A stretch of 64,000 nt of DNA from an uncultured bacterium (GCA_963843795.1 CAWJLW010000006.1:496001-560000); one strand, 5' to 3'; shown: positions 322 to 63,806, numbered from the stretch's first letter. Numbers and translations: made by a program. The notes: generated by a model from the letters alone, not told the origin.

Positions 322-1083
322 TTACGATGCATTTTTCAAGTTCAGATGCTGAATGAAGAATTGCAATGAATCTTGAATATGCAAATCCCAGTACTCCCAA
401 GTGTGCGCGCCAGGGTTTTCCTGATACTCGTGCGCGATTTTCTGCTCTTGCAAGTACTTGCAGAAAGCGCGATTGTCTTCGATAAGAAAATCATCGACGC
501 CGCAATCTATGCGCAGAGCCGGTAGTTGTTCGCGGTCGATTTTTTCGGCTAGCGCGTATAAATCATCTGCGCCGCCGCGCGGCTTCGACCCTAAAATTTG
601 AGCAAATTCGAGATTCAAATTTTCGTCGTCACGCAAATTATGACCAAAGCCCAAAGCGCCGGAATGCGAAACTGCTGCGCAGAACATCGTGGGATATTTG
701 AGCGCGAATTTCATCGCCCCATAGCCGCCCATTGAAAGGCCGGCCACGACGCGCCCGCGCCGGTCGGGAACCGTATTGAATGCGTTATCGACAAAATTGA
801 TCACGTCGCGGGCGATGTAAGTTTCGTATTGGCTTTTGGAAGCGTCTTTGGCGTCGCAATAAAAGCCGCGCCCTCCGTCGGGCATTACAACAATGAGCGG
901 CAAATCGCGCACGTATTTTTCGATGTGACTGAGACGCATCCATGCGCTATGATTGTCGCTGAGGCCGTGTAAAAGATACAAAACCGGAAACGGGCCAACT
1001 TGGTTTTCGGGCCAGATAACCGATAAATTCATCATCTTTTGCAGTGCGTTCTGATTGTTCATCTGTAAAATTGCGCTCGCCAT
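322..1083 (-). CDS. Alpha/beta-hydrolase esterase (S-formylglutathione hydrolase/tributyrin esterase family)
   Basis: LYLLHG, nucleophile GLSMGG, CGVDD and GAHTWEYW motifs. Confidence 0.88.
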
Positions 1084-1244
1084 TTGAAATCCTTTTTCCT
1101 TAATTTAGCTTTGAAACCGGCGATTTGAATGCCGATGAAGTAAAAATTTCACCGCAGGTGCCTGCGGGGCGTTTTGTGCCAGCCGATTATACTGACAAGT
1201 GCCCTGCCAGTACTTGCAGGTCGGTTTATTGAATTGAAAACGTT

Positions 1245-2870
1245 ATGGCCAATCCACTCCGCGATTTTTTGTTTGGCACGATGCAGCAACCCAAGCGCGA
1301 GCTTGTCGAAGCCATCGAGCCGCGCCGCACTTTCGATGATGTTATTTTGCCCGATTCCACCCGTTTAGCCCTTAAACACGCACTCAATCAAATTCGCAAG
1401 CGCGACTTGATTTTTGGGCGTTGGGGGTTGGGCGAACGCCACATGACCGGGCAAGGTTTGGCCTTCAACTTCGCCGGGCCGCCGGGGACGGGCAAAACCG
1501 TGTGCGCCGAAGCCATCGCGCAAGCTCTGGGCAAGAAACTTTTGGTCGTGCGGTATTCGGAAATGGAAAGTTTGTGGGCGGGCGAAACCGGAAAAAATGT
1601 CGCCGCCGTCTTTCATTCGGCGCGTGAACAGGACGCGGTTTTATTTTTCGATGAAGCCGACGCCATCGCGGGAAAACGTTTCGCCAATGTGACTCAAGGC
1701 TATCAGCGCGAAGCTAATACGGTTGTCAATGTGTTGTTGAAAGAATTGGAAGATTTCGATGGCGTGGTGATTTTCGCAACCAACTTAGCGGCCAACTTCG
1801 ATCCGGCGTTTGAGCGGCGCGTGCGCACACATATTTTGTTTGAAATGCCCGGCCCGAAAGAGCGCGCGCAGATTTGGCGCGTGCAGTTGCACCAAAGCAA
1901 GACACCTTTAGCGCCAGATGTCGATTTCGAAGCGTTGGGTGAAAAATACGTGACGGCGGGCGGCGATATTAAAAACGCGGTCTTGAAAGCCGCCCAAATT
2001 GCGGCGGGCGAAAATGGCGCGGACGCCGATAAGCAGATTCATCAGCGTCATTTCGTGGAGGGCATGGAAGACGTAGTGGCGTCCAAGCGCGTGATGGCGC
2101 AATCGTTATACGGCGATGGTGATGGTTCGCACCGTTCGAGCGCCGATATGCAGGCGATGAACACGCTGAACGGTTTGAGCGGCGCTTGGGAAGAATTGTC
2201 GCAGGGACAGGGCAATTTGGAAGTTCAGGTCGATGAAATCGCGCGACGTGTGGGCGAAGTCGAACTGCAGAATCGTGCTCTGCCCGGCATTGTCGAACGC
2301 TTCGATGACGCGGCGCGCGTGGCGCAAAATGCCCTACGCGACGAACTGGAAAAGCGTTTGGACGATTATAACGTGCGTCTGGAAGAAAACGGCGCTGCGC
2401 TGGGACGCCTGGGCGAAAATTACGCGCAAATAGCTGAAGGTCACGCGACCTTAAACGAAGCGGTTCACGAACTGCGTGACAATAGCGGTGCGCTACGCGA
2501 CGAATTGGAAAAAGTGCGCTCTGGCAGCGGTGAGCTGCGCGAGCAACTTGAACGGGTGCGCGGGCAACTTGAACGGGTGCGCGGGCAACTGACCGAAGGT
2601 TTGGACGAACTGCGCCAATCGCGCGCCTTGGCGCTACGCGAAGAAGGCGAGCGCGCGGCGAATCAAGAAAAAATGATCATCGAATTGCGCGACAGCTTGC
2701 CCGCGCAGCTGGCATTGCTAGACGAAAAGCGCGCGGCGGAACTACAAATTACGCTGGGCCCGCTGCAACAAGAATTGCAAGTACTTGCCGGGCGCTTGCT
2801 GTGGGCTTATGGCGCCGCAGGCGTGGCAATTCTCACGGCGATTGTGGCAATTGTAATGGCGCTGAATTGA
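1245..2870 (+). CDS. AAA+ ATPase with long C-terminal coiled coil and terminal TM helix
   Basis: Walker A GPPGTGKT, Walker B LFFDEAD, SRH ATN..DPAFERR; heptad-rich region; hydrophobic C-terminus. Confidence 0.85.
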   Translation: MANPLRDFLFGTMQQPKRELVEAIEPRRTFDDVILPDSTRLALKHALNQIRKRDLIFGRWGLGERHMTGQGLAFNFAGPPGTGKTVCAEAIAQALGKKLLVVRYSEMESLWAGETGKNVAAVFHSAREQDAVLFFDEADAIAGKRFANVTQGYQREANTVVNVLLKELEDFDGVVIFATNLAANFDPAFERRVRTHILFEMPGPKERAQIWRVQLHQSKTPLAPDVDFEALGEKYVTAGGDIKNAVLKAAQIAAGENGADADKQIHQRHFVEGMEDVVASKRVMAQSLYGDGDGSHRSSADMQAMNTLNGLSGAWEELSQGQGNLEVQVDEIARRVGEVELQNRALPGIVERFDDAARVAQNALRDELEKRLDDYNVRLEENGAALGRLGENYAQIAEGHATLNEAVHELRDNSGALRDELEKVRSGSGELREQLERVRGQLERVRGQLTEGLDELRQSRALALREEGERAANQEKMIIELRDSLPAQLALLDEKRAAELQITLGPLQQELQVLAGRLLWAYGAAGVAILTAIVAIVMALN

Positions 2871-2883
2871 TAAATCATTGAGT

Positions 2884-3566: not shown

Positions 3567-3728
3567 GATATTTGCCTCCTGAGAGAAAAATCGTGGCCAT
3601 AATTGTTGGCATTGATGGCTTTTAAACGCGTCCCACGAGAATTTGTTTAGATTATTTTCGTCAATCGTCTCAAGGTTCGATGTGCGCTCGGCATTCAAAA
3701 CGCCCTGCAAGTACTTGCTGGCACCAAA

Positions 3729-5606
3729 ATGAAATTAAAAGGATTAATTGTGTCTCTTTATTCCCAAAACTCCCAAACCAGTTCTGCCGCGCCCGATTTG
3801 GAAAAGCCGCTGCCCACGCGCAGCGAAATTCCCGTCGAATTGACGTGGGATTTGAACCCGATTTACACCAGCGACCAAGAATGGGAAAGCGATTTCGTGC
3901 GCATGGAAAGTGAAATCGAGAAGTTCGCGCCCTTGCAAAACACGCTGAAAAATGGCGCTCAAGCGCTGCTGCAAGTACTTGCGTTGCGCGAAGCGACCGG
4001 AATTGTCTTCGGCAAACTGTATTCATATGCCAGTTTGCGCCAAAGCGAAAATAACGCCGACCCGCAGGCGCAAGCGCGCAAAGATCGCATGGCGATGCTG
4101 GGCACGCGGCGCGGCGCGGCGACGGCTTGGATCGAACCGGAAATTTTGTCGATTCCCGCCTCGCAATTACAAGAATGGGTGGAAAACGAATCCGAATTGC
4201 ACGTTTACCGGCGCTATTTCGAAACCTTGGAAATGCAGCGCCCGCATCGCTTGTCCGGCGAGGTTGAAAATGTGCTTGCTCAAGCCTATGAAGTTATGGG
4301 CAACTCCTACAATGTTTTCACGCTGTTCAATAACGCCGATTTAAAATTTCCGCACATCAAAGACGAAAATGGCCACGAAGTCGAATTGACTAAAGGCCGC
4401 TACATCAATTTTCTGGAAAGCCGCGACCGTAGCGTACGCGAAGCGGCGTTTCACGCCATGCAAGGCAGTTATTACAACTGGCGCAACACGCTGGCCGTCA
4501 CGCTGTCAGGCGCCGTGAAAAGTCATGTTTGCGATGCGCGCGTGCGTCGATACGAATCAGCTTTGGACGCGGCTTTATCGCCAGAAGAAATTCCGACCGC
4601 CGTTTATCACAATTTAATTTCCAGCGTGCGCGAGCGTTTGCCGGTTTTGCATCGTTATTTGCGTTTGCGCAAAAAACTGCTTGGCCTGGACGAACTGCAA
4701 ATGTGGGATTTATACGTGCCGATGCTCGCCGACGTTGACAAGAAGATGAGCTATCGCGAAGGCGCAGACGCAGTCTTGAGTTCTGCGCAGCCCCTCGGCG
4801 CGGAATATGTGAGTATTTTGCAGCGCGGTTTGGACGAGCGTTGGGTCGATGTGCCGGAAAATCAAGGCAAAACCAGTGGCGCGTTTTCCGATGGTAGCTA
4901 TGCCACGCCGCCTTATATTTTGATGAACTGGCAGGACAAACTCGATTCGACTTTCACTCTCGCCCACGAATTTGGCCACTCGATTCATTCCTATCTCACG
5001 CGCCAAACTCAGCCTTACACCTACGCGAATTACACGATTTTCGTGGCTGAAGTCGCTTCTACCCTGATGGAAAACCTCTTGTCTCATCAACTGGTTGAAC
5101 GCGCGAAAAAAGATAATGACCGTGCGCTGCAAATGTCGTTGTTGAACCAATACGCCGAACGTTTTCGCAGCACGTTGTATCGGCAAACGATGTTTGCCGA
5201 ATTTGAGTTGGCAATTCATCAGGAAATCGAGAATGGTGCTTCGCTAACGGCTGATAAAATGAGCGAGATGTATCTTAAGCTCAACGAAGATTTTTATGGT
5301 GCAGAAGTCACAGTTCACCCCGACATCGCCATCGAATGGGCGCGGATTCCACATTTCTACTACGACTTCTACGTTTATCAATACGCGACCGGCATTTCCG
5401 CCGCAACGGCATTGAGCCGTCAGGTTTTGGAAGAAGGCGAACCTGCGGTCGAGCGTTATTTGAATTTTCTGCGCGGGGGTTCCAGCCAGAATTCGATTGA
5501 TTTGCTGCGTGGCGCGGGCGTCGATATGGCTTCGCCACAGCCAATTCATCAAGCGCTGGATGTGTTTGAAGAAACGATTGCGCAGATGGAAAATTTGAGC
5601 GATTGA
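3729..5606 (+). CDS. pepF: Oligoendopeptidase F (M3B)
   Basis: TWDL N-terminus, GKTSGAF, HEFGH zinc motif, AEVAST, RQTMFAEFE, WARIPHFY. Confidence 0.95.
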   Translation: MKLKGLIVSLYSQNSQTSSAAPDLEKPLPTRSEIPVELTWDLNPIYTSDQEWESDFVRMESEIEKFAPLQNTLKNGAQALLQVLALREATGIVFGKLYSYASLRQSENNADPQAQARKDRMAMLGTRRGAATAWIEPEILSIPASQLQEWVENESELHVYRRYFETLEMQRPHRLSGEVENVLAQAYEVMGNSYNVFTLFNNADLKFPHIKDENGHEVELTKGRYINFLESRDRSVREAAFHAMQGSYYNWRNTLAVTLSGAVKSHVCDARVRRYESALDAALSPEEIPTAVYHNLISSVRERLPVLHRYLRLRKKLLGLDELQMWDLYVPMLADVDKKMSYREGADAVLSSAQPLGAEYVSILQRGLDERWVDVPENQGKTSGAFSDGSYATPPYILMNWQDKLDSTFTLAHEFGHSIHSYLTRQTQPYTYANYTIFVAEVASTLMENLLSHQLVERAKKDNDRALQMSLLNQYAERFRSTLYRQTMFAEFELAIHQEIENGASLTADKMSEMYLKLNEDFYGAEVTVHPDIAIEWARIPHFYYDFYVYQYATGISAATALSRQVLEEGEPAVERYLNFLRGGSSQNSIDLLRGAGVDMASPQPIHQALDVFEETIAQMENLSD

Positions 5607-6188: not shown

Positions 6189-6808
6189 ATTCCGACTGGC
6201 AAGAAGGCATCGAATATCTCAAAAAAGACGCGCCGATGCGCACGATTATCGAGCGCGTCGGCGCACCGGAATTGGGGCGCGAACGCGATGCGTGGCGCTC
6301 GCTTTCAAGTAGCATTATCGGCCAGCAAATTTCGGTCAGTGCTGCGCGCGCGATTCGTAATCGTTTCGCGGCTTTGGCCGGCAGTGATTATCCAACGCCG
6401 GAGCAAGTACTTGCAGCCGATGACGAAACGCTGCGAGGCGTGGGTTTATCGCGCAACAAAATTCTCGCCGTGCGCGATTTAGCTGCGCATTTAAAAGACG
6501 GGCGTATTCATGCAGCGCGCTTCGATGAAATGGACGACGAAGCGATTATCAAAGAATTGAGCGCGGTGCGTGGCATCGGTCGCTGGACGGCGCAAATGTA
6601 TTTGATGTTTTCGCTGCAACGCCCTGATGTGTGGGCAATCGACGATCTGGGTTTGCGTCACGGAGTGCGCAAGTTGCACGGATTGGACACGATGCCAACT
6701 AAAAAAGAAATGGAAAGTTTGGGCGCAATCTGGTCGCCATGGCGCAGCTTGGCTTCGTGGTATTTGTGGCGTTCGCTGGAGAATGAGCCAGAAATTGCGA
6801 CGAAATGA
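6185..6808 (+). CDS. alkA: DNA-3-methyladenine glycosylase II (AlkA/HhH-GPD family)
   Basis: IIGQQIS, HhH VRGIGRWTA, DDLG, WSPWRSLASWYLW; ATG at 6185 overlaps upstream stop. Confidence 0.85.
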   Translation: MNSDWQEGIEYLKKDAPMRTIIERVGAPELGRERDAWRSLSSSIIGQQISVSAARAIRNRFAALAGSDYPTPEQVLAADDETLRGVGLSRNKILAVRDLAAHLKDGRIHAARFDEMDDEAIIKELSAVRGIGRWTAQMYLMFSLQRPDVWAIDDLGLRHGVRKLHGLDTMPTKKEMESLGAIWSPWRSLASWYLWRSLENEPEIATK

Positions 6809-6884
6809 TGCTGCAAGTACTTGCAGCACATACAAATAAAACCCCGCGGACTTTTAGCCCGCGGGGTTTTATTTTGAACCGAGA

Positions 6885-7321: not shown

Positions 7322-7498
7322 CTTCGCACTCTCCTCGCGCCGCCAAGCGTGCTGCAAGTACTTGCAGCACGTTAAACACGCCCGACATATTATAGGAAAG
7401 CGCGCGCTTGCGGTCAAGCACGAAAACACAGCCAAACGCGCCAGGCGCGCCGCGGCTTTGATACAATTAAACGGTTCTTATTCTCTGAAATCTCGAAT

Positions 7499-8281: not shown

Positions 8282-9714
8282 AAATTGCTTATTTCGATTG
8301 TTTTTCCGGTATCGCGGGCGATATGGCGCTGGGCGCGTTGCTCGATTGCGGCGTGCCGCTCGCTGAATTGAAAAGCGCGTTGGCCACGCTCAAATTAGAA
8401 GATTGGGACATCGAAACCACGCCCGCCCTGAAAAGCGGCATCCACGGTTTGCAAGTACGCATCACGCATCACGGACAAACCGATCACGAAGAATTCGAAC
8501 ACGCGCATGATCACGAACACGCGCATGATCACGAACACGCGCATGATCACGAACACGCGCATGATCACGAACACGCGCATGATCACGAACACGCGCATGA
8601 TCACGAACACGCGCATGATCACGAACACGCGCATGATCACGAACACGCGCATGAGCATTCGCATGAGCATTCGCATTCGCACGTTCACACGCACGGGCGT
8701 TCGATGGCGGAAATTCGGGCGTTGATTGAAAGCAGCGCATTGAGCGCGCGTGTGAAAATGCAAAGTCTGGCGGTTTTCGAGCGCATCGCGCAAAGTGAAG
8801 CGCAGATTCATCACATGGAAGTTGCCGCTGTGCATTTTCATGAAATTGGCGGTCTGGATTCGATTGTCGATATTATCGGCGTGTGCTGGTGCTTGGAATA
8901 TCTGGGCGTGGAAAGCGTACGGTTTTCGCCGTTGCCCAGTTCGCGCGGTTGGGTCGATTGCGCGCACGGTCGGATGCCGGTTCCGGCTCCGGCGACGCTG
9001 TTGCTTTTGAAAAGTGTGCCGCTTGTGGCAACAGAAATCGAAGGTGAAATGGTGACACCGACAGGCGCGGGCATTGTGGCGGCATTGGGCGAAAGTTTTG
9101 GTGCGCTGCCGTCGTTTACTCCGCAACATGTTGGTGCGGGCGCGGGGCGCAAGAATTGGCCCGACCGTCCGAATTTGCTGCGTGTGATTATCGGCGAAAT
9201 GGGAAATGCAGAAAGCACAAAAGACGCGTCGCAAGTACTTGCGCCCTCAGTTGCCGCGCGTTTGCCGGGTTTGAAGTGGCAGCAATTGCAGGTCGTAGAA
9301 TGCAATGTAGACGACATGAACCCGGAGTTCTTCTCCCACGTCATGGAGCGGATTTTTGAGGTGGGCGCGCTCGATGTGTGGTTGCAACCGTTGCAAATGA
9401 AAAAGAATCGACCGGCGCATTTATTGAGTGCGCTGTGTGAAATCGAGCGCGTGCCAGATGTGGTGCGCGTGATTTTGTGCGAAACGACAACGCTCGGCGT
9501 GCGTTTGCAAGCGGTCGAGCGCGCTTCACTGCAGCGCGAAAACAGCGAAGTGGTGACACCTTACGGCAAAGTGCGCGTCAAAATCGCGCGCTGGGACGAA
9601 GAGAATCTTAATCGTGCCAAGCCCGAATGGGACGACGTGCAGCAGTTGGCGCGTGAGAATGGCGTTACCGCGCGCGAAGTTTATGCGGCTGCACAACGCG
9701 CTTTAGAAAGCTGA
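8278..9714 (+). CDS. larC: Nickel insertase LarC
   Basis: MKIAYFDCFSGIAGDM, VHFHEIG, HGRMPVPAPAT, ECNVDDM, MKKNRP, PEWDD. Confidence 0.95.
   Translation: MKIAYFDCFSGIAGDMALGALLDCGVPLAELKSALATLKLEDWDIETTPALKSGIHGLQVRITHHGQTDHEEFEHAHDHEHAHDHEHAHDHEHAHDHEHAHDHEHAHDHEHAHDHEHAHDHEHAHEHSHEHSHSHVHTHGRSMAEIRALIESSALSARVKMQSLAVFERIAQSEAQIHHMEVAAVHFHEIGGLDSIVDIIGVCWCLEYLGVESVRFSPLPSSRGWVDCAHGRMPVPAPATLLLLKSVPLVATEIEGEMVTPTGAGIVAALGESFGALPSFTPQHVGAGAGRKNWPDRPNLLRVIIGEMGNAESTKDASQVLAPSVAARLPGLKWQQLQVVECNVDDMNPEFFSHVMERIFEVGALDVWLQPLQMKKNRPAHLLSALCEIERVPDVVRVILCETTTLGVRLQAVERASLQRENSEVVTPYGKVRVKIARWDEENLNRAKPEWDDVQQLARENGVTAREVYAAAQRALES
8497..8654 (+). repeat. 18-bp tandem repeat (8 perfect units plus partial) encoding (EHAHDH)n in larC
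   Basis: GAACACGCGCATGATCAC x8 from 8497 to 8640. Confidence 0.97.
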
Positions 9715-9785: not shown

Positions 9786-11261
9786 ATGCAGCAACGATTG
9801 AAACAATTGAAGACGACATCGCCCCCCATCATTCGGAAAATGTCGCGCGGCACTCTCACGGCAGGTTTGATCGTCTTAAGTGCCGCTGCAAGTACTTGCA
9901 GCGTGCGGGCGCAGTCGGCGGTTTATCCTACTGATGTGGTGAACATCGCTGCGGCAGCCAATGGCGGTCGCATCGTCAGCGTGTCGTCAACCATCGACAA
10001 CGACCCGAAATTTAACGCGAACAATCTCATCGACGGTCAAGTGCTGAGCGCGGCTAATGTTAAAGCCAGCGCGGGCTGGGCGTCCAATAAATTCGATCCG
10101 GTCGCGATGGACACTGTCACTTTTGGTTTTAAAGATAACGCGGTTAAAAACATCGGTAAAATTGTCATCAATCCCGCTGCGGCCTTAGCGCCCGAACGTT
10201 GGGCCAAAGATATCGAAGTGCAAGTTTCGACCGGCAGCGCCGATGGGCCGTATCGTCCGATTGCCCAAATCACACTGCGCAAAGACGCCGTGCCACAGGA
10301 ATTTTTGTTTCTGCCGACCGAAGCGCGCTTTGTGCGCTTGATGTTTCGCTCGAACTGGGGTTCAGACCGCGCCGTCGCGCTGGGCGAAGTTGAACTTTAT
10401 CAGGCAATTGGCAAAGACGATCCGATGGGAATGGTCATTGCGCATCTTGAAAGTGCTGTCACCGACCTCAAGCGTTTTCGCCAAACCCAAATCGAAGGCA
10501 CTAATCCTGGCGGACAGACTGTGAGCGCGGGTTTGAACGAAGCGACCTTGCAACTCATTCAAAGCTCGAGCGAAAGCACACGATTGCCCGTTTCAGCCAC
10601 TAATATCGCGCTGGCGAAAAATGGCGGTCGCATCGTCGATAGCTCCAGCACCTACGTTTCCGATCCGGCCAAAGGCCCCGACCCACTTTACGGGCCGGAA
10701 AATTTGATTAACGGCGAAAATTACACCGGCAAAGAAAGCGACAGTTTTGGCTGGGCCAGTCAGGGTTTTGCGCCCGGCAAGCAGTTCGTGACGATTGGTT
10801 TCAAAGACGATCGCACGCGCTTGATTTCCAAAGTCATTGTTAATCCCAGTTCGTATCAGTCGGATTTGCGCTGGGCGCGCCGCATCGATGTGCAGGTTTC
10901 GACCGAATCGGCCACAAAAGGCCCGTTTCGCACCGTGGCAACGCTCAACCTGCGACCCGAAGCCACGAATCAGGATTTTCTGATTCGTCCCGTCGAAGCC
11001 AAATATGTGCGCTTCGTTTTCTTGGCGAACGGGCCAGGCGGCATCTCGATTCCCAACGCTGATCCCGATGTCAACAGCGACCGCGCGGTATCTCTGGGCG
11101 AAATCGAAATCTACGAAGCGACGGCAAGCGGTCAGGTTCTCGATACTTTAGTCACGCGCTTCGAGCAAGTGCTGCTGGAATTGAAAACGCTGCGCAGTCG
11201 TGGCGAGGCAGAAACGACTACGGCGGTGACCGCCGATAAATCGAAAGTTCGAAAGTCGTAA
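9786..11261 (+). CDS. Secreted protein with two discoidin/F5-8 type C-like domains
   Basis: Signal-like N-terminus; internal duplication NIA..ANGGRIV..NLIDG..GWAS..ARFVR..GEVELY. Confidence 0.7.
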   Translation: MQQRLKQLKTTSPPIIRKMSRGTLTAGLIVLSAAASTCSVRAQSAVYPTDVVNIAAAANGGRIVSVSSTIDNDPKFNANNLIDGQVLSAANVKASAGWASNKFDPVAMDTVTFGFKDNAVKNIGKIVINPAAALAPERWAKDIEVQVSTGSADGPYRPIAQITLRKDAVPQEFLFLPTEARFVRLMFRSNWGSDRAVALGEVELYQAIGKDDPMGMVIAHLESAVTDLKRFRQTQIEGTNPGGQTVSAGLNEATLQLIQSSSESTRLPVSATNIALAKNGGRIVDSSSTYVSDPAKGPDPLYGPENLINGENYTGKESDSFGWASQGFAPGKQFVTIGFKDDRTRLISKVIVNPSSYQSDLRWARRIDVQVSTESATKGPFRTVATLNLRPEATNQDFLIRPVEAKYVRFVFLANGPGGISIPNADPDVNSDRAVSLGEIEIYEATASGQVLDTLVTRFEQVLLELKTLRSRGEAETTTAVTADKSKVRKS

Positions 11262-11275: not shown

Positions 11276-11309
11276 AAAAGCGCGCTGCAAGTACCTGCAG
11301 CGCGCTTTT
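11276..11309. terminator. Bidirectional terminator built on a variant of the GCAAGTACTTGC palindrome
   Basis: AAAAGCGCGCTGCAAGTACCTGCAGCGCGCTTTT between convergent genes. Confidence 0.8.
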
Positions 11310-12442: not shown

Positions 12443-13141
12443 TTATTCGTCGTCAGTTTCCGACATTGCGGCATTCTGACCATCAATTACGACAACCCAC
12501 TCGCCCAAAATTTCCTTGCGCGCGGCAAGTACTTGCACCAACTCTTGCGCCGTACCGCGCAGCGTTTCTTCAAATTTCTTGGTCAATTCACGTGACGCAC
12601 AAATCTGGGGCGCGCTTTCCAGCGCTGCAAGTACTTGCAGCGTCTTCAAAACACGATGTGGCGATTCATAGAACACAACAGTTTCGCCACGCGCCAAAGC
12701 TTCTTGCAGCGCGCGCTTATGACGACCGGGTTTACGGGGCAAAAAGCCCAAAAACGAAAATTTCTGCGCATCGAAACCGGAAATCGAAAGCGCCGAAGTC
12801 AGGGCACACGGGCCGGGAATCGGCAGAACTTGCACTCCCAATTCAATTGCGGCGCGCACCAGAGCCGGTCCAGGATCGGAAACTCCAGGCGTTCCAGCAT
12901 CGGTCACGAGTGCCGCGCTCTGGCCATCTTTTAAGCGCTGCGCCAGAGACGCCAATTTGCTGTCGTGCGAATGTTGATGCACGGAAACCAGCGGCGTGCG
13001 AATTTCGTGACGCGATAAGAGACGTTGCGTGTGGCGCGTGTCTTCGGCACAAATGAAATCGACTTCTCGCAGGGTGGCGAGAAGTCGCAGCGAAACGTCT
13101 TCCAAGTGACCAATTGGGGTAGCACAAACGTAAAGTGGCAT
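12443..13141 (-). CDS. rsmI: 16S rRNA C1402 2'-O-methyltransferase
   Basis: ATPIGHLED, AEDTR, DAGTPGVSDPG, YESPHR, RELTKKFEE. Confidence 0.95.
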   Translation of the reverse strand: MPLYVCATPIGHLEDVSLRLLATLREVDFICAEDTRHTQRLLSRHEIRTPLVSVHQHSHDSKLASLAQRLKDGQSAALVTDAGTPGVSDPGPALVRAAIELGVQVLPIPGPCALTSALSISGFDAQKFSFLGFLPRKPGRHKRALQEALARGETVVFYESPHRVLKTLQVLAALESAPQICASRELTKKFEETLRGTAQELVQVLAARKEILGEWVVVIDGQNAAMSETDDE

Positions 13142-14317: not shown

Positions 14318-15313
14318 ATGACCGCACAAAAATTTGTGGCGACCCATCGCGAAGATTGGCAGCGTTTGGACGAACTGGTAGCGCGCGCCCAGAAATTTCG
14401 TCTCACTTCCCTTTCCGATGATGAATTGTTGGAAATGGGCGCGCTGTATCGTCGCGCCACTGCAGATTTGGCGCGCGCGCAGACGCGCCACGCCGACACA
14501 CACGCCGGACGCGAACTGATTCGTTCGCTGAATGCCTTGGTGTTGCGCTCCCATGCACAATTGTATTCCGCGCCCGCACCGCAGCCGCGTCGCGCATGGC
14601 ACTGGTTGAAATACGGCTTTCCAGCCACGTTTCGGCGGCAATGGAAAAATGTGGCGATTGCAGCAATTTTGCTGTTTTTGCCTTCGGTTATCGCGCAAGC
14701 GTGTGTAGTTGTAAACGCAGATTTGGCGAAAATTTTCGTGCCCGAAAGCGCTATTGAAGAAGTGCAAAAGCGCGCCGAGAAACAAATTATCACCGGTTGG
14801 GGCGCGAATACCGATTACGGCGGACTGATGTCAAGTCCGGGCGTTTCGAGCTTCATTATGACCAACAATATTCAAGTTTCGATTTTAGCTGCTGCCTTGG
14901 GCTTGACTGCAGGTATCGGAACAGCGTGGGCTTTGATTACAAACGGCATGATGGTCGGCGGGCTGGCGGGCGTGGCGACCAATGCGAAGGTCGATTTATT
15001 GTTTTGGGCGGTCATTCTACCACACGGCATTTTGGAATTAACCGCGATTTGTATCGCGGGCGGCGCGGGTTTGTGCTTAGCGCGCGCGATCTGGACGCCG
15101 GGCGCTCTGCCTCGCGGCGACGCCCTGAAACTGGCCGGAGCCGAAGCCGCCAAATTGATGATCGGCGTGGCATTTCTGCTCGTCATCGCTGGTTTGATCG
15201 AAGGTTTTCTCACGCCATTGCCGCTGCCACCGTCGATTAAATTGACTTTCGCAGCGCTGAGTGGCGTGGCGCTGATTGCCTATTTGAGCATGAAACCGCG
15301 CGGTACGGAATGA
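14318..15313 (+). CDS. SpoIIM/DUF95-family membrane protein
   Basis: W.RL..L, YRRATADLA, TNNIQVS, NG, LPHGILEL, AGLIEGF. Confidence 0.85.
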   Translation: MTAQKFVATHREDWQRLDELVARAQKFRLTSLSDDELLEMGALYRRATADLARAQTRHADTHAGRELIRSLNALVLRSHAQLYSAPAPQPRRAWHWLKYGFPATFRRQWKNVAIAAILLFLPSVIAQACVVVNADLAKIFVPESAIEEVQKRAEKQIITGWGANTDYGGLMSSPGVSSFIMTNNIQVSILAAALGLTAGIGTAWALITNGMMVGGLAGVATNAKVDLLFWAVILPHGILELTAICIAGGAGLCLARAIWTPGALPRGDALKLAGAEAAKLMIGVAFLLVIAGLIEGFLTPLPLPPSIKLTFAALSGVALIAYLSMKPRGTE

Positions 15314-15344
15314 AATATTGTGCAAGTACTTGCACAATATTTCA
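15311..15344. repeat. Perfect 34-bp palindrome spanning two convergent stop codons
   Basis: TGAAATATTGTGCAAGT|ACTTGCACAATATTTCA. Confidence 0.95.
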
Positions 15345-16331: not shown

Positions 16332-16545
16332 CGCCAGCAGTGTCTTACTTCAGGTTGAATGTTGCCAACGTCGAAAATAACATGATCAAATAACCTTAAC
16401 AGGCAAAAACCAAAATAATCAATTCTACGCGCTGCAAGTACTTGCAGCGCGTTTTGGTGAGACAATGCGCTACATTTCACTGTCGATATTCAAGCGTGTA
16501 TTAGCGTTTTCGGTTACAATCATCAAAATAGGAAAAGGAGAGGTT

Positions 16546-18515: not shown

Positions 18516-18605
18516 AGTTGAATCTCAGCATTCCAAAGACGCGCTGCAAGTTACTTGCGCAAGTATTTGCAGCGCGTCTTTTTAGTATCTCGGCTGTGGC
18601 TGACT

Positions 18606-19190: not shown

Positions 19191-19447
19191 ATTTTTATTG
19201 TCTATTAAGCAGTTGTCATGTGAATTCGGTTGAGCTTTGCCTGCGCAGAAAAATTCGTTTCAGGCGAAATGCCGCAGATTCTCGAGCGCGAATCCTAAAT
19301 TCTACATAATTTGGTGACAATGTTATCGGCCGAAAACCCATAAACAGCCCTGCAAGTACTTGCAAGTCCGTTTCGGTGGTTCAAAAGCCATTCCGGTGCC
19401 AGTGAGCTACACTTTTTACACAGAACAATACAGCGAAAGGGAACTTT

Positions 19448-20588: not shown

Positions 20589-20630
20589 GTTTTTGTATCT
20601 CCTGTTCTGCGCGCAAGTACTTGCACGCGG

Positions 20631-42598: not shown

Positions 42599-42668
42599 GG
42601 GGAGGCAGCACAAATCTCGCTGTATTTTCAGCCTTTTTTTAAGCATTTAAGTTGATTTTCAGAGGTTG

Positions 42669-43358: not shown

Positions 43359-43395
43359 CTTTTCCCTTCACCCATCAATCACTGAACTGCTATTT

Positions 43396-43470
43396 ATTAT
43401 ACCAAACTGATAGGTTTTTACAAGGGCAAGAAGCAGGGAGTTTGAAAAAACTTATCAGATGGGATATAAT
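43396..43470. promoter_or_regulatory. Divergent sigma70-like promoters, each with AAC(C/T)TATCAG in the spacer
   Basis: Minus: TTGTAA-16-TATAAT (43423-43396); plus: TTGAAA-17-TATAAT (43442-43470). Confidence 0.7.
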
Positions 43471-43476
43471 CAGAAT

Positions 43477-44846: not shown

Positions 44847-44936
44847 ATTTGAGTCTCAGAGAGCGCCTAAGGAGAAACAAAAAAGCGCAAATTCCCTTTA
44901 AATAAAGGAAAAATGCGCCTTCTGCATAAAACTGGA

Positions 44937-45010
<74 letters not shown>

Positions 45011-45136
45011 AATTCAACGCGCATTGAAATTATAATCGGAAGCCGCTAACAATGCAATGCGCAGAACGAAAATAAACCAAGAAGTGAGCTGCAAGTACGG
45101 GTGCACCATACTTGCAGCTCACTTCTTGGTCCATCA

Positions 45137-47320: not shown

Positions 47321-47472
47321 AAAAATTGGGCGGGCAAATTTGAAATTGGGTTTTTACGGCAGCTATGCAACCATCTGTGCAACCAGATGTGCAACGCGAT
47401 TCCGTGTAGGCGGGTCGCAAGTACCTGCAGCAAGTACTTGCTGCAGGTACTTGCAAGCTGCAAATTTAACTT

Positions 47473-49593: not shown

Positions 49594-49824
49594 AAAATCA
49601 TCCGAAATTGTCGTGTCCAAACCGGCTGCAAGTACTTGCAGCGATTTGCGTGAGGCAACGCTTTGGCCCTCTGCAATTCACTGCAAGTACTTGCGGTCAC
49701 AGCTGCGTTTCAAAAATAAATTACACCGCTTTGGTCAGCAGCACGGTTGTGCTGCGAATACCTGCAGGAGCTTTTTGGATGAAATCGCGCGCGCTTCGTT
49801 CACAAAAATTTGCTGTGATTGAAT

Positions 49825-50847
49825 TTAGGCTTCGATGCGATTGGCGTAATTGCGGCGATAATAATCCTGGTAATCGTCTCCATCACGAATTGTGCGCCAC
49901 CAATCCTGATTGTCGCGATACCATTCGATAGTTTGCGTCATCGCGGCTTCAAAACTTTGTTGTGGCTTCCAACCTAACTGGCCGATTTTCGTGCAGTCCA
50001 GGGCGTAGCGGCGGTCGTGCCCGGGACGATCTGCGACGTGTTTAATTAAAGACTTGGGTTTGGCAAGTACTTGCAGAATCAAATCGGTGACATCGTGATT
50101 GGTTTTTTCATTGCCGCCACCCACATTATAAGCCTGACCGATTTCGCCTTTGGTTCCGGCCAGCCAAATACCTCGCGCGTGGTCTTCGGCAAACAGCCAA
50201 TCGCGGCGCTGCAAACCATCACCATATAAAGGCAGTGGCTTGTTGTCGATGGCATTCGTCACAAATAAAGGCAGCAATTTTTCGGGATATTGATACGGGC
50301 CGAAAGTGTTCGAGCCGCGCGTAGTAATCACTGGAACATCGTGCGAAACAAAATAAGCACGCGCCAAAAGTTCGCCACCGGCTTTGGCCGCCGAATAAGG
50401 CGAGCGCGGTTCCAACGCATCGGTTTCCACCGAGTAGCCGCTTTCGATGTCGCCGTAAACTTCATCGGTCGAAACTTGCACAAAGCGTTCAATGCCGCGC
50501 TTTTTGGCTTCTTCTAATAAAACGTAAACGCCATAAACATCGGTTTGCACGAACGCGCCCGCGTGCGCGGGATCGCCCATCAGCGAACGATCAACGTGCG
50601 ATTCGGCAGCGAAGTTAAAAACATGGCTGCAACCTTCCATCGCTTGCGCGACAGCTTTGGCATCGCAAATATCGCCCTGCTGAAACGTCACGTTTTTGTC
50701 GTCATCGAACTCGGCCAAATTTTCCAATCGTCCAGCATATGTCAGTTTGTCCAGCACGACAATTTCCGCTTCCGGCTGCTCGTTGCGCACCACGCGCACG
50801 AAATTCGAACCGATAAAACCGGCGCCGCCCGTTACCATAATTTTCAT
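49825..50847 (-). CDS. rmlB: dTDP-glucose 4,6-dehydratase
   Basis: GGAGFIGSN, DKLTYAG, AESHVDRS, STDEVYG, YSAAK, DRPGHDRRY. Confidence 0.96.
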   Translation of the reverse strand: MKIMVTGGAGFIGSNFVRVVRNEQPEAEIVVLDKLTYAGRLENLAEFDDDKNVTFQQGDICDAKAVAQAMEGCSHVFNFAAESHVDRSLMGDPAHAGAFVQTDVYGVYVLLEEAKKRGIERFVQVSTDEVYGDIESGYSVETDALEPRSPYSAAKAGGELLARAYFVSHDVPVITTRGSNTFGPYQYPEKLLPLFVTNAIDNKPLPLYGDGLQRRDWLFAEDHARGIWLAGTKGEIGQAYNVGGGNEKTNHDVTDLILQVLAKPKSLIKHVADRPGHDRRYALDCTKIGQLGWKPQQSFEAAMTQTIEWYRDNQDWWRTIRDGDDYQDYYRRNYANRIEA

Positions 50848-54004: not shown

Positions 54005-56143
54005 ATGAGCGGTATTGCAGGTTTTTACGAATTGGCCCGTCCAGCCGAGTTCGGTCTTATCGAGCGCATGACGAAAATCATGGCGCATCGGGGGCCCGAT
54101 GGCGACGATCATTGGCAAAACAATCGCGTTGCGCTGGGTCATTGTTCGCTCATCACCACTCCTGAAGCGCAGCACGAAACTTTGCCTCTGCATAGTGCGC
54201 CCTGCGGATTAACCCTAACTTGTGATGCGCGATTGGACAATCGCGATGAACTGCTGGCGCAATTAACGGATGAACTCGAGCGCCTGCAAGTACTTGCAGA
54301 ACCGTTGAAAGCAGAAAATGTCGGTGATGGCGCGCTGATTTTAGCGGCCTATATGCGCTGGGGCGAAGGGTGTGCGGAGCAATTGTTGGGCGATTTCGCG
54401 TTCGCGATTTGGGATGAGAACAAGCAACGATTGTTCTGCGCGCGTGACCATGTGGGTGTGAAACCGTTTTATTATCATCACGCAGCGGGCGAACATTTTG
54501 TTTTCGCCAGCGAAATTAAAGCGATTTTTCAGATGCCTCAGGTTTCGCGCGCGCGCAACGAAAAACGTATCGCCGAGTATTTGCTGTTCGCGTTTTCTGA
54601 CCACGAAAGCACCTTTTACTCGCAAGTTAGGCGCTTGCCCGCTGCGCACACGCTGACTGTTTCTCGTAGCGAATTTCGTTTGCAGCGTTACTGGAATTTG
54701 AGCGAAACACCAATGCAACATGGCTTATCAGATGCCGAAGCCGATGCGCGTTTTCGCGAAATTCTGTATGAAGCGGTGCGCTGTCGATTGCGGGGACGCG
54801 CGGGCGAGGTCGGTGGATTTTTGAGCGGTGGCCTCGATTCGTCGTCGTTGATGTGTGTGGCTCGCGAAGTGAAACGCGAGCAAACGCTCGCTGGCGAACA
54901 ATCGGAACCGCTGCCAGTTTTTTCAACGATTTACGATGAGGTGCCGGAATGTGACGAACGCCAGTGGATAAATAATGTGCTCGATATGGGCGGCTTGAAG
55001 CCGAACTGGATTAAGGGCGAAAGTCGCAGCGCTCTGATGGATTTGGAAGAAATTCAATGGTTCGTCGACGAGCCGTTGTTGGCACCGAATTTATGTTCTG
55101 GATGGGCGCAATATCAGCGGGCGAGCGAGCAAGGCGTGCGCGTTTTGCTGGACGGTCATGGCGGCGATGAGGTAATTGGTTCGGGTTACAATCGCCTGAA
55201 TGAGCTGGCGCGTGCCAAACAATGGAAAACCCTGTGGCGCGAGCTGCGTTTGCTGGAGCGCAACGGCTTTTGGGGTGATGATGGCGTCTCGGCCAATGCC
55301 ATGATGCGTTTATATCTGGCGGCACTGTGGACTCCGGCGCGCCTGACACGACGCGTTGTCGCTGCCATAGCACGCCGCTTGAATCGCAACGAAAAACGCC
55401 ATGCGAGCGCGCAGAATGTTGGCTCTGCAATCGACACGAAAATTGCGGAAGGAGACGAAATTATCAACGCCGATTTCGCTCGCCGCATCGACGCGGCGTC
55501 GCTTCACGAAGCGTGGGAGCGCGAGCAACCTCGACCCAACTGCGGAGACCGCGAAACTAATGAGCGCGTGTTGGCAACTGCGTTGCAAACGATGGCTTTG
55601 GAAACGCTCGATAAAGCTGCAGCCGCATCAGGCGTGGAAGCGCGCTATCCGCTGTGGGACAAAAGGTTGGTCGAGTTTTGTTTGGCTTTGCCTGCGCAGC
55701 ACCGTTTGCGCGATGGTTGGAGCCGCTTGATTATTCGTCGTGCTTTAGAAAATGTGCTGCCTCCCGAAGTACAGTGGCGCACCAGCAAAAATAATTTCAT
55801 GGGAGAATTGCGGCGCGGGCTGCGCGTTTATGAAACCAAACGATTGCGCGCGCTGGCTCATGACGAAAGTTCGCTGCTCAAAGATTACGTTGATAAAGCC
55901 AAGCTGAATTCTTTCATCGAAAAAACGCTTGGCGATGAGCCACACAAAACCTGCCACGCTCACGATGTTCTGCGTGCGGCTTGTTTCCAAGCCTGGCTGT
56001 TGAAAACTGAGACGGAGACAGACGATGAAAATAGAAAGCAAAGTTATCATAAGAACAATCAGCCTGCAGTCCGAGAAGGCGATAGTTTGGACGAAATCTC
56101 TACATTGAAGCTTGCAAAGAATGTTTTCAGTGAGCACCGATAG
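54005..56143 (+). CDS. Lasso peptide cyclase (asparagine synthetase-like)
   Basis: MSGIAG (no catalytic Cys2), ARDHVGVKP, LSGGLDSS, DGHGGDE, RYPLWDKRLVEF; follows B1/B2. Confidence 0.92.
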   Translation: MSGIAGFYELARPAEFGLIERMTKIMAHRGPDGDDHWQNNRVALGHCSLITTPEAQHETLPLHSAPCGLTLTCDARLDNRDELLAQLTDELERLQVLAEPLKAENVGDGALILAAYMRWGEGCAEQLLGDFAFAIWDENKQRLFCARDHVGVKPFYYHHAAGEHFVFASEIKAIFQMPQVSRARNEKRIAEYLLFAFSDHESTFYSQVRRLPAAHTLTVSRSEFRLQRYWNLSETPMQHGLSDAEADARFREILYEAVRCRLRGRAGEVGGFLSGGLDSSSLMCVAREVKREQTLAGEQSEPLPVFSTIYDEVPECDERQWINNVLDMGGLKPNWIKGESRSALMDLEEIQWFVDEPLLAPNLCSGWAQYQRASEQGVRVLLDGHGGDEVIGSGYNRLNELARAKQWKTLWRELRLLERNGFWGDDGVSANAMMRLYLAALWTPARLTRRVVAAIARRLNRNEKRHASAQNVGSAIDTKIAEGDEIINADFARRIDAASLHEAWEREQPRPNCGDRETNERVLATALQTMALETLDKAAAASGVEARYPLWDKRLVEFCLALPAQHRLRDGWSRLIIRRALENVLPPEVQWRTSKNNFMGELRRGLRVYETKRLRALAHDESSLLKDYVDKAKLNSFIEKTLGDEPHKTCHAHDVLRAACFQAWLLKTETETDDENRKQSYHKNNQPAVREGDSLDEISTLKLAKNVFSEHR

Positions 56144-57969: not shown

Positions 57970-58905
57970 ATGTCTTTTTATTATCAGGCGTATGGCTTAA
58001 ATTTCATTTCGCAGATAGAAATTCCTGAACTCGATGCCTGTGCACCCGATGCCGCGCCCGATGCGCAGATTGTCTTCTGCGAACACCCGATTCCGATTGC
58101 CGACGATGGCTTCGCGATTGATGAAGATGGCGCGGTGCGCTTGCACTTTTCAATCGTTGGCAGCTTTCGTATTAGTGGCGGCAACTTAATCGAAGTTGAG
58201 CCTCTGCCTACAGTTGATAAAGATACTTTGCGTTTGCCGCTTCTGGGCGCGGCAATGGCAGTTTTACTGCAGCAGCGCGGCCTGTTTTCGCTCCATGCCA
58301 GTGCGGTTGCAATTGATGGACGCGCGGCGATTTTTATCGGTGATAAAGGTCAGGGGAAATCGACGATGTCCTCGATGCTGTATGGGCGTGGACACGAAAT
58401 AATTGCCGATGATATCGCTGTTATTGACGATCACACAACGGCTTTGAAAAGCGCTGCAAGTACTTGCAAGCTCCAAAATTTGCTGGTGCGCCCTGGTTTT
58501 CCGCAGTTCAAGTTAGTGCCCGATGCGCTCAAAGCTTCTTTCGATCTCGAAAGCGACGAAATGCCTTCGGTTTCGCCGCTGGTCGATAAGCGCGCGGTGC
58601 GCTTGAACGAGCGTTTTCTGCAAATGCCCGCACCTTTGGCGCGTGTTTACATTTTGATGGACGGCGAGTGGAAATTGGAAGCCTTGCCGCCGCAAGAAGC
58701 GCTGCGTCATTTGATTACGCATTCTTACAGCGCGCGCTTTGGACGCCAACTGCTGGCCGGTGCGGCAGGCGCGCGCCATTTGCAAATGTGCGGTCAATTG
58801 ATCAATGCCGATGTCGTACGCTGCCTGCAACGCCCGCGCGACCTGAGTTTTCTCAAAGAAGTCGCGGCCCGCGTCGAAGCTGATATGCGTTCGGTTCAAA
58901 TTTAA
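57970..58905 (+). CDS. HPr-kinase-like lasso peptide kinase (PadeK/PsmK-type)
   Basis: YQAYGL, LHASAV, GDKGQGKST, IADD; probable start 57970. Confidence 0.88.
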   Translation: MSFYYQAYGLNFISQIEIPELDACAPDAAPDAQIVFCEHPIPIADDGFAIDEDGAVRLHFSIVGSFRISGGNLIEVEPLPTVDKDTLRLPLLGAAMAVLLQQRGLFSLHASAVAIDGRAAIFIGDKGQGKSTMSSMLYGRGHEIIADDIAVIDDHTTALKSAASTCKLQNLLVRPGFPQFKLVPDALKASFDLESDEMPSVSPLVDKRAVRLNERFLQMPAPLARVYILMDGEWKLEALPPQEALRHLITHSYSARFGRQLLAGAAGARHLQMCGQLINADVVRCLQRPRDLSFLKEVAARVEADMRSVQI

Positions 58906-59044
58906 AACTGGTGCGAAAACGCTTCGGTTTCTTTTCACAGTCCAATCGTCAAAGCATTTAAACTGAACGCAGTTGTTGCGACCTGTCTGAGATGCTTGCT
59001 TTGTAGAACGATCTGCAAGTACTTGCGGAGGTTCGCAGGCAATC

Positions 59045-62291: not shown

Positions 62292-62318
62292 AGGGTGCTG
62301 CAAGTACTTGCCAGAATC

Positions 62319-63581
62319 TTAGCGCTTACGCTGCACGAACAATAAGAGCAATCCGAAAAGCAGTAGCCAGACGATGGCGCGTCGCCGTGCGCGGCGCGGC
62401 GCGTTGTCTTGAATATGTCGATAAAGCGCTTGCACTTTGCGCGTGGTGTTCTGAATGGTGAAATGTTCGCGCACCCGCTTTTGCCCCATTTGCCCCATTT
62501 CGAGCGCGCGTTCAGGATGTTGCAAAAGCCACAAAAGCGCTTCGGCCATCGCGTTCGAATCGCCCATCGGCACCAGCAAGCCGGTTTCGTTTTCCTTGAT
62601 AATTTCTACCACGCCCCCACCGCGCGTCGCGACCACCGGTTTAGCTGCCGCCATGCCTTCCATCACGACCTGACCAAAGGGTTCGCCAATTGTCGAAGCG
62701 TGGGCCAGAATGTCCAAGTCCGCAATTAAACCTGGCACATCGTCTCGAAAGCCCAGCCATTCCAATCTGTCGTCCAGTTTCAATTCGCTGGCCAGTGCCC
62801 TCACTTCGCGTTCGTAGTTGTCTTCGCCAAACATCGCCGAACCGATAATTTGAAAGCGTACCTGCGGCCATTGTTCGCGCACCTTTGCGGCAGCGCGAAT
62901 GAAAACATCCTGACCTTTCCACGGACTGATGCGTCCGACCAAACCGATCAGCGGCTCGTTTTCCAAGCGTTGGCGCGCGATTCCGCGAGGCTCGACGAAA
63001 CCGTCATGCACTACGCGCGTGCTACTGTCGCTTGGCAATTCTAGTGCATCGAGAGTCGCCTGGGAATTGACGATGAGATACTGAGGCACCAGGCGGCACG
63101 CCAATCGAAACAGGGCCGCGGCTCGCGGCGGCAGATAATCGTCGGCGATGCGGTCTCGAACGTGCCACACGATGGGAACGCTGGCCAATCGTCCGGCCAA
63201 TCCGCCCAAAACATCGGCTTTAAGTGAATTGGTGTGCAAAATTTGAGCGCCGCGCCGATGCAGAAACCAAGACAGTCGGATGACGTAACTTAGCGCGTTC
63301 AAAGCTTGTTTCAACCGTAAGCCCATGGAACCATCGAGCGTATCTTTGCGGGTTTGTGAGATCTGCTCGTCAAGAGGCAAGATGTGAGTTTCGATGTTTG
63401 CCGCGCGCAGTTGGCTTGCTAAATCGCCTTCTTCGCCCAGCACAACAACCGGCGTGTAAAGCGCTGTGTCGATGTGGCTTACCATGTTGAGCAGTGAAAT
63501 TTCGCCTCCACCCAGTTTGGCGGTGTGATCGAAATAAACGATTATCGTGGGTTTTGAGGATTGGGAAGTTCGAGAAAACAT
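62319..63581 (-). CDS. GT4 glycosyltransferase with C-terminal TM
   Basis: GGGE, GRISPWKGQ, EPFGQVVMEGMA. Confidence 0.92.
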   Translation of the reverse strand: MFSRTSQSSKPTIIVYFDHTAKLGGGEISLLNMVSHIDTALYTPVVVLGEEGDLASQLRAANIETHILPLDEQISQTRKDTLDGSMGLRLKQALNALSYVIRLSWFLHRRGAQILHTNSLKADVLGGLAGRLASVPIVWHVRDRIADDYLPPRAAALFRLACRLVPQYLIVNSQATLDALELPSDSSTRVVHDGFVEPRGIARQRLENEPLIGLVGRISPWKGQDVFIRAAAKVREQWPQVRFQIIGSAMFGEDNYEREVRALASELKLDDRLEWLGFRDDVPGLIADLDILAHASTIGEPFGQVVMEGMAAAKPVVATRGGGVVEIIKENETGLLVPMGDSNAMAEALLWLLQHPERALEMGQMGQKRVREHFTIQNTTRKVQALYRHIQDNAPRRARRRAIVWLLLFGLLLLFVQRKR

Positions 63582-63806
63582 GGCGGTGAAAAAGTGCGCT
63601 CTTATCTGATGAAATTTAAGTGAGTTCCTCATTAAGTCGTGCGAAATTGTGGTTCTGCTTATAACATTTTCTATGCCTTGCTAAAGTCTAATCACACGCG
63701 ATATTCTAATATCTCTAACGGGACACGGCGATTTGCGCACTGTGTCCGGCACCAAAACAGACCGCAAGTACTTGCAGCGCCCCGACCTCAACTTCGAAAT
63801 CATTTC

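Follow-up and report, generated by a model that had tools for sequence, protein, structure and literature searches.

A GTAC-centred palindrome flanked by phased A/T arms recurs throughout the chromosome of an uncultured Abditibacteriaceae bacterium

What keeps a single 12-bp palindrome at thousands of positions in a bacterial chromosome, both between genes and inside them? The question is raised by a 64,000-nucleotide stretch from an uncultured bacterium (GCA_963843795.1, CAWJLW010000006.1:496001-560000; hereafter the window), in which the exact 12-mer occurs 25 times between positions 450 and 63775 and in none of 100 dinucleotide shuffles; copies with at most one mismatch number 34, with 0.12 expected. 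A preliminary description of the window had counted at least 25 exact copies, 12 in coding sequences (CDS) and 13 intergenic, and this count was reproduced with independent gene calls. The variants it listed also exist, those at 1206, 5623, 7792, 11287 and 61982 with one mismatch, that at 24161 with two, and those at 18546, 50929 and 60982 as an insertion form. In the whole 4,299,948-bp genome (G000), the exact word was found in 2,567 copies on all 11 contigs (0.60/kb), where a second-order Markov model expects 0.2. New here is that the copies lie at the centre of phased A/T arms spanning ~110-120 bp. The best named relatives of the PepF protein encoded in the window are Abditibacteriaceae (62-63% identity), in agreement with the named matches of an orphan methylase described below. 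Contigs assembled from the short reads of run X1 agree with the window at 99+%, and one identical piece (3741-4066, 0 differences) spans the copy at 3971; X1 may be the source sample, so that an assembly artefact is excluded, yet X1 does not count as a second population. The reads hold too few differences for a measure of how well sites are conserved within the species.

The consensus is sharp, with 2,567 exact copies vs 506 carrying one mismatch. The 12-mer sits centrally in the commonest 8- to 18-mers, its consensus extension is CTGCAAGTACTTGCAG, and an A tract lies 8-11 bases before the core and a T tract 8-11 bases after it. A form with one base inserted at the centre of the word, GCAAGTWACTTGC, occurs 66 times genome-wide. 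AGTACT had been proposed as the core; the invariant part is instead GTAC, the A flanking it being the most variable of the 12 positions, and one related genome splits AGTACT altogether. Density is flat along the main contig, C6, and does not change at either turn of the GC skew; leaving aside the first 100 kb and the last 23 kb, each 100 kb holds 47-83 copies. No position bias relative to the replication origin or terminus was seen along C6, and this speaks against the partition-protein (or macrodomain) site considered earlier. Copies are absent from islands; the longest copy-free gaps in the genome measure 26.5 and 25.7 kb, the latter inside the window. No gene flanked by an unusual cluster of copies was found, the maximum being 6 copies in 1.5 kb. 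One variant of the word prefers the lagging strand, with 42 of 118 copies on the leading one. The last 23 kb of the main contig (C6:3600001-3623414) have 67% GC and zero copies and are likely foreign or mis-joined. Another contig, C4, resembles phage DNA and is sparser in the motif (24 copies in 100 kb).

The word is restricted to a few relatives, which have their own versions of it. The exact 12-mer has 0-3 copies in each of 20 relatives. Motif-rich and motif-poor genomes were called by counts of RAGTACTY in 31 genomes of the class: six have 2,695-4,371 copies and the other 25 have 0-396, many of them below the reversed-pattern control. One of the low-count genomes, G006, proved on inspection of its fetched DNA to carry a 26-bp dyad, and it was therefore added to the motif-rich group, giving 7 of 31 rich genomes and 24 of 31 without an AGTACT-type tag. 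In a 301-genome sample of the phylum, 5 genomes exceeded 2,600 RAGTACTY, all of them Abditibacteriaceae, and the other 296 had at most 396, a pattern count that would miss a split dialect. Genera g2 and g5 (G005, G007, G008, G011, G025, G027, G028) have only 0-7 copies of RAGTACTY in 4-6 Mb, vs 117-348 for controls. Some relatives have amassed RAGTACTY and others have purged it. No other abundant word was found in 20-60-kb samples of 12 motif-poor genomes, among them G031, which belongs to the genus of G006 and G009.

Five dialects were read from fetched DNA, and all keep GTAC: GCAAGTACTTGC in G000, CAAAGTACTTTG in G001 (same genus as G000), WTCGAGTACTCGAW in G009, G032 and G033, YGAGTACTCR in G012, and the 26-bp dyad RAGTACGGTCGA-WW-TCGACCGTACTY in G006. 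In G006, all 93 of 93 inverted pairs in 340 kb have a single fixed offset, the halves show no strand bias, and lone halves retain a worn second half. The G006 half-site RAGTACGGTCGAWWT is two positions off the extended Haemophilus uptake signal sequence (USS), a match with a ~1-in-20 probability of arising by chance by hand estimate. The G000 dialect also recurs in metagenome contigs of 58-71% GC; their proteins share on average 66% identity with those of G000, and the filter retained 62 of 80 full-length loci. In a GyrA tree of 26 rows (G013 and G022 were left out, and G001, G016 and G034 gave no hit), the rich genomes require 2 changes, and one origin followed by losses was not rejected (p-AU 0.114).

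The G006 dialect is also carried by a temperate phage (integrase, ParA/B, terminase, portal, capsid), with 26 sites in 52 kb, some of them within the terminase and portal genes. Two other phages were noted. A phage of 40% GC (IMGVR_UViG_3300009514_000019), without protein hits to G000, has 10 TGCAAGTACTTGCAC words in 35.7 kb, nearly all directly upstream of genes, and the word is probably an operator or promoter of the phage, unrelated to the palindrome. Phage IMGVR_UViG_3300034031_000030 encodes a 2,236-amino-acid portal protein fused with further domains, one of them Nudix-like (2960-9670), and has several proteins in common with contig C4 of G000.

Genome-wide, with our own gene caller (3,551 genes, 85% coding), 1,799 of the 2,567 copies (70%) are intergenic, 752 lie in CDS and 16 on a border. 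The copies in CDS favour the QVLA frame (494 of 752) and inflate the peptides QVLA, KYLQ and ASTC 13- to 35-fold over permutations. In comparisons with orthologues from G001, G009 and G006, 66 of 80 such copies had no gap within 4 residues and 14 had one; the background gap rate being 8%, gaps near the copies are somewhat raised. The residues concerned are variable (local identity 0.21-0.48 vs 0.61-0.64). Ten of the 80 coincide with a copy in the other genome's dialect, vs 1.2 expected, an excess that is inflated because variable positions tolerate change in both genomes. Among relatives of the same dialect, 7 of 17 CDS copies were kept at the same codon (0.16 expected), and the 26-bp dyad of G006 is likewise written in frame into core genes. 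These alignments indicate that new copies originate by substitution and are retained afterwards.

Of the spacers of at least 20 bp, 1,417 of 2,416 contain a copy. The left and right flanks of the word co-vary as base pairs in convergent and tandem spacers (z up to 17) and not in CDS; at least five extra paired bases were found in 203 of 295 convergent copies vs 29 of 752 CDS copies, and an extended stem with a U tract in 187 of the 295. Two example hairpins that were folded gave z ~-6. The extended spacer copies are predicted two-way intrinsic-terminator forms. Termination seems to be a side use, because a copy is as frequent in divergent spacers (266 of 479) as in tandem ones (1,233 copies for 2,206) and the ribosomal-protein cluster is equally densely occupied (17 copies in 30 kb, density unchanged). 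Rho is present in the genome. A reading of the core at the RNA level was rejected: G·U-type variants in tandem spacers (sense/antisense 26/29, 25/11 and 8/10) show little strand preference.

The copies are also spaced more evenly than random. The coefficient of variation of the gaps is 0.70, vs 0.79 and 0.85 for two nulls, and falls to 0.56 in G009, where few gaps are below 400 bp. Copies in CDS lie far from intergenic copies (median 1,059 bp vs 646±30 for random CDS positions), and distances from one CDS copy to the next showed no difference from the matched null. Where copies do lie close together, they keep helical register: the 234 pairs separated by 15-110 bp show a period of 10.3-10.6 bp (R 0.32, where a jitter null reaches at most 0.24). 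Hardly any such pairs exist in G009. In a crude spectrum along the chromosome, the strongest peaks were at 2-3 kb, with one at 34 kb, and no 10-90-kb period stood out.

Around the dyad the frequency of AA/TT oscillates, with maxima ~14-14.5, 24-25, 35-36, 45-46 and 55-56 bp out. At 19-60 bp the amplitude is 0.041, vs 0.005-0.008 in controls anchored on TTT tracts remote from the motif and 0.0025 for random sites, and it persists in arms without the first tract (0.040). It declines with distance (0.021, 0.012), so that the signal reaches ~60 bp on each side and is weaker beyond, and it also declines with mismatches in the core (0.029, 0.021, 0.006). A period of 10.5 bp (bootstrap 10.4-10.7) was obtained from 2,053 isolated sites. 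Phased arms were seen in all four site classes. The periodicity of protein alpha-helices was rejected as the origin of the signal in CDS, since the oscillation is present both in spacers and at four-fold silent codon positions (0.036; null maximum 0.025). The genome-wide AA/TT autocorrelation (~11.1-11.2 bp) was rejected as a cause by the TTT-anchored controls. The arms keep the same phase in G009 (amplitude 0.025, null maximum 0.012, period 11.0) and in G006 (0.015, null maximum 0.013, period 10.5); in G001 the signal is marginal, the metagenome relatives show it weakly and without a null, and G012 (47 sites) and the temperate phage (26 sites) have too few sites to judge. Because the A/T tracts are phased at 10.5 bp, even at silent codon positions, we infer a reader protein with two-fold symmetry, which recognises the core as duplex DNA and bends or wraps the surrounding ~110-120 bp.

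The preliminary description had proposed a lineage-specific chromosome signal of the type of the highly iterated palindrome HIP1 or of uptake sequences, and this is supported by the genome counts, the surveys of class and phylum, the dialects, the orthologues and the spacing. Dialects, terminator forms and phased flanks had escaped that description. The palindrome works like a tag of the DNA uptake sequence (DUS) or HIP1 type and, by the features tested, belongs to neither family. It resembles the DUS of Neisseriaceae and the USS of Pasteurellaceae in its density near 1/kb (0.89/kb for DUS and 0.80/kb for USS; PMC2817400), sharp consensus, even spacing and in-frame substitution at poorly conserved residues. 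Co-option by terminators (termination being predicted here), dialects around a fixed inner core, reported for DUS and USS in PMC12616744, absence from islands, flanking AT tracts and the USS-like half-site of G006 are further likenesses. It differs from them in its two-fold symmetry, in phased arms reaching ~55-60 bp on both sides and in belonging to another phylum. These population features match uptake sequences as they are presented in the available text of PMC2817400, PMC12616744 and PMC7811141, and favour a tag linked to transformation.

We therefore lean, with about as much doubt as belief, to the view that the palindrome marks duplex DNA as 'self' at the level of the species, is linked to transformation at uptake or at the recombination that follows, and is kept by drive. 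What is observed and underlies this view is a symmetric 12-16-bp GTAC-centred core with its phased A/T arms, an even tiling at ~1-1.5 kb, in-frame substitution, the dialects, the absence of the tag from sister lineages that have lost it, and placement at terminator tips. DNA would enter by a type IV pilus, ComEA and ComEC, or the tag would act in the recombination step afterwards; a putative dimeric reader would bind the dyad and bend or wrap the arms. Fragments with a good site, one being sufficient, would enter or recombine more often, and perfect sites with curved flanks would thereby be driven into the chromosome wherever they are tolerated. A shift in the specificity of the reader would let a new dialect replace the old, and loss of the reader would let the tag decay. 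Drive acting on incoming fragments would explain the perfect sites in core proteins, the filling of gaps, the dialect swaps and the total losses, and a dispensable reader would agree with thousands of sites being swapped or lost altogether. Palindromic HIP1 has been reported to raise transformation (10.1101/2024.09.10.611283; PMC13756078).

Several observations weigh against a transformation tag. Known uptake sequences are non-palindromic, while perfect dyads are found here in all dialects; the arms extend over five helical turns on both sides, far beyond the two AT tracts of the USS; and the helical phasing of neighbouring copies suits a wrapping protein inside the cell. In the temperate phage, G006-type sites are almost as dense as in the host. 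We saw no uptake or transformation results for these organisms in the literature. Motif-poor relatives have the competence genes and the complete minor-pilin locus just as motif-rich genomes do, and no receptor or pilin gene of the ComP or PpdA/ComN type specific to rich genomes was found in the syntenic pilin loci, in a comparison that did not include a search with the ComP family model.

The survey of candidate readers covered competence, pilus, architectural and DNA-binding proteins. ComEA was found in 29 of 31 class genomes, ComEC in 5 of 5 and DprA in 4 of 5, the one without it being motif-poor G031 (84% complete). ComEA and ComEC were rejected as readers specific to rich genomes, as they occur in poor genomes too. 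G000 has a full type IV pilus locus, pilin is present in 26 of 31 genomes, and 4 rich and 13 poor genomes share the gene order of the locus; the G006 locus lacks the tip gene. Minor pilins and the tip protein yielded no rich-specific gene (the tip-protein alignment had one rich row only), and a FecR-type pilin was discarded because it has no full-length match in motif-rich G009 and full-length matches in many poor genomes. In the G000 locus, the genes for the tip protein, a pilV-like protein, pilC and pilD are fragmented and are whole in relatives, probably through assembly indel errors. Two stand-alone proteins with tandem AP2 domains (C6:2124483-2125031 and 1248447-1248965; weak Pfam AP2, atlas 0.96) are attractive candidates because PfAP2-G is reported to bind GTAC (PMC7083873). 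All 7 rich genomes and 11 of the 24 poor ones encode tandem AP2 proteins (18 of 27 in the family, 0 of 4 others in the class). They were nevertheless rejected, as neither of their two paralogous clades covers all rich genomes and their recognition strands are near-identical across dialects.

A possible alternative, which we consider clearly less probable than a transformation tag, is that a sequence-specific nucleoid protein binds each dyad, wraps ~110 bp and tiles the chromosome at ~1.3-kb steps as nucleosome-like chromatin or loop anchors. Selection on chromosome structure might then keep both sites and curved arms. In its fullest form, which we regard as equally tentative, a putative dimeric protein would read the GTAC-centred dyad and wrap ~110 bp of DNA in a nucleosome-like manner, and the chromosome, coding sequence included, would have been rewritten at one unit per 1-1.5 kb, with reader and sites co-evolving into dialects. 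Wrapping explains the arms best: the oscillation extends to silent positions and its phase is common to G009 and G006, and the maxima match the nucleosome pattern. The 234 phased pairs and the scarcity of gaps below 400 bp in G009 also agree with a nucleoid protein, as do the age of the sites, seen in their retention at the same codon, and the undiminished density in the ribosomal-protein cluster; a nucleoid role has been argued for HIP1 (PMC5861425). However, in-phase neighbours follow from curved arms alone, stretches of 26 kb are free of sites, no 10-90-kb period appeared in the crude spectrum, and dialect swaps and total loss are hard to accept for an essential architectural protein. No histone-fold protein (PF00808 in 0 of 5 genomes; PF09123 in 0 of 31) or Lrp/AsnC protein (0 of 5) was found, and HU was rejected as a reader, being single and ordinary. 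Among the options of the preliminary description, the uptake tag and the nucleoid site are those left standing.

We think it unlikely that methylase-directed repair or conversion makes and keeps the palindrome around methylated GTAC, as Elhai proposed for HIP1 (PMC4390886). HIP1 (GCGATCGC) and the alternate HIPs are genome-wide palindromes in and between genes, with conserved positions and palindromic extensions (PMC4390886, PMC5861425), lineage variants around a 4-base core and an orphan methylase, and in all this they resemble the present word. The HIP1 octamer GCGATCGC is a different word, however, and ours is longer (12-26 vs 6-12 bp), lies outside the cyanobacteria, in Abditibacteriaceae, is 70% intergenic with terminator forms and has no methylase matched to it; phased arms are not mentioned in the available text of the same two papers. 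G000 does encode an orphan beta-class adenine methylase with a DPPY motif (L106:1483-2253), its sole PF01555 hit. The enzyme is 56-75% identical across the family, is broken in G023 and G028 and was not found in five genomes of genus g2. It is present in 22 of 31 genomes, including 7 of 7 rich ones, and GTAC is the invariant core; in 13 of 15 motif-poor genomes with the enzyme, the observed/expected ratio of GTAC is at most 0.21, vs 0.80-0.83 in three related genomes without it. Yet those 15 are 15 of the 24 poor genomes, G002, G030 and G013 deplete GTAC without the enzyme, and CTAG and GGWCC show the same pattern. Methylase-directed repair also fails on the 12-26-bp dialects, the 66 insertions that break GTAC, the gap-filling and the phased arms. 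Neither a C5 nor a Dam-family methylase was found in G000, and a paper on hot-spring methylomes had nothing on Abditibacteriaceae. The methylation- or repair-driven HIP put forward earlier is weakly supported, by one orphan methylase that motif-poor genomes have as well.

Strong sites for DNA gyrase, with GTAC as the 4-base stagger and the periodic arms wrapping the C-terminal domains of GyrA, are very improbable. The reported E. coli gyrase motif (PMC6379681) is similar in size, symmetry and its 4-base centre (130 bp, with a 36-bp central part and arms periodic at 10.75 bp, compared here over ~110-130 bp), one type II topoisomerase A subunit was found per genome (5 of 5), and gyrases are reported to differ by species (PMC12324340). 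That motif is degenerate and ours is a fixed 12-mer with a period of 10.5 bp; the published AT tracts, read by eye at ~18, 29, 38, 49 and 60 bp out, are ~4 bp out of phase with those found here, and GyrA has no feature specific to motif-rich genomes in an alignment of five.

Repetitive extragenic palindromic (REP) elements and bacterial interspersed mosaic elements (BIMEs) are mostly intergenic palindromes, lineage-specific and present in hundreds to thousands of copies. That mobile hairpins of this kind, spread by an HUH nuclease (REP-associated tyrosine transposase, RAYT), or simply a favoured terminator hairpin underlie the palindrome fits its intergenic majority, its presence in over half of the spacers and the co-varying arms, and is nonetheless scarcely credible and largely refuted already by the 752 in-frame CDS copies (30% of sites lie in genes) made by substitution without extended arms, by the occupancy of divergent spacers, the G·U-type variants and the presence of Rho, and by the RAYT-like Y1 gene of the genome (G000:C6 near 752,000; L228:1100-1900), which is flanked by its own paired GTAG-type REP repeats (a 14-mer, 15 copies genome-wide) and has no PF01797 counterpart among hits in G006. 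Motifs of the matS, parS, KOPS and Chi types differ from the palindrome by clustering around the origin or terminus or by strand polarity, neither of which was seen here (47-83 copies per 100 kb on C6; both orientations of the G006 halves).

No paper on the motif was found, most subscription papers being outside the search. Tags of such strength are otherwise described, in the literature as available to us, only for two proteobacterial families (DUS and USS) and for cyanobacteria (HIP1, whose function has been open for decades). Armatimonadota now add an independent case of their own, which comes with a comparative design built in: five dialects and close tag-free relatives. The 110-bp phased arms are a structural clue to look for around HIP1, DUS and USS, and they define a probe for fishing the reader. 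In Abditibacteriaceae the motif can further serve as a practical marker for islands, phage hosts and metagenome binning.

Within the window, the exact copies in genes are mostly read in the QVLA frame: LQVLA at 2777..2788 (CDS 1245-2870(+)), 3971..3982 (pepF, the copy covered by the identical short-read contig), 12627..12638 (rsmI), 50063..50074 (dTDP-glucose dehydratase) and 54286..54297 (CDS 54005-56143(+)), EQVLA at 6403..6414 (CDS 6185-6808(+)), SQVLA at 9231..9242 (larC) and VQVLA at 12525..12536 (rsmI). CKYLQ is encoded at 450..461 (CDS 322-1083(-)) and at 21681..21692 (CDS 21625-22191(-)), the last copy before the long gap, and the ASTC frame is used at 9888..9899 (CDS 9840-11261(+)) and 58456..58467 (CDS 57970-58905(+)). 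Divergent spacers hold exact copies at 3707..3718, 7354..7365 (6 extra paired bases), 16434..16445 (7 extra), 19352..19363 and 63764..63775, and a one-mismatch copy at 1206..1217. Those in convergent spacers are at 6813..6824 (4 extra), 15322-15333 (11 extra, spanning 15311..15344) and 62300..62311. Between convergent genes, a 34-bp two-way terminator-type hairpin at 11276..11309 (-28.8 and -25.2 kcal/mol, z ~-6) has the one-mismatch copy 11287-11298 as its tip. Tandem spacers contain exact copies at 20613..20624, 59015..59026 and, 55 bp apart in one spacer, 49628..49639 and 49683..49694. At 18546..18570 the insertion variant GCAAGTTACTTGC is followed by a one-mismatch copy (18559-18570), and three tandem copies in 13-bp steps occupy 47417..47454, one exact (47430-47441) and two with one mismatch. 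This triplet ends the 25.7-kb stretch without an exact copy (21693..47429), in which one-mismatch copies remain at 35445 and 47417.

Most of that stretch is taken up by an element of low GC at 26342-45010, integrated at a tRNA gene (44938-45010(-)), with at least 30 bp of the tRNA end duplicated (att) at 26342. It carries a tyrosine integrase gene (43830-44846), type I restriction genes R, M and S and an IS3 transposase gene. The adjoining block at 21693-26341, of 59% GC and also without an exact copy, encodes rhodanese, sulfite-exporter-like and metallo-hydrolase proteins and is probably a separate acquisition. An Rfam scan of the window returned 3 tRNAs only. At 53094-58905 lies a lasso-peptide-type cluster, in which the product of 54005-56143 scores above the NCBIfam cut-off for an isopeptide cyclase; the cluster also has an HPr-kinase-like gene, an adjoining ABC transporter and a short precursor-like open reading frame near 57265-57423.

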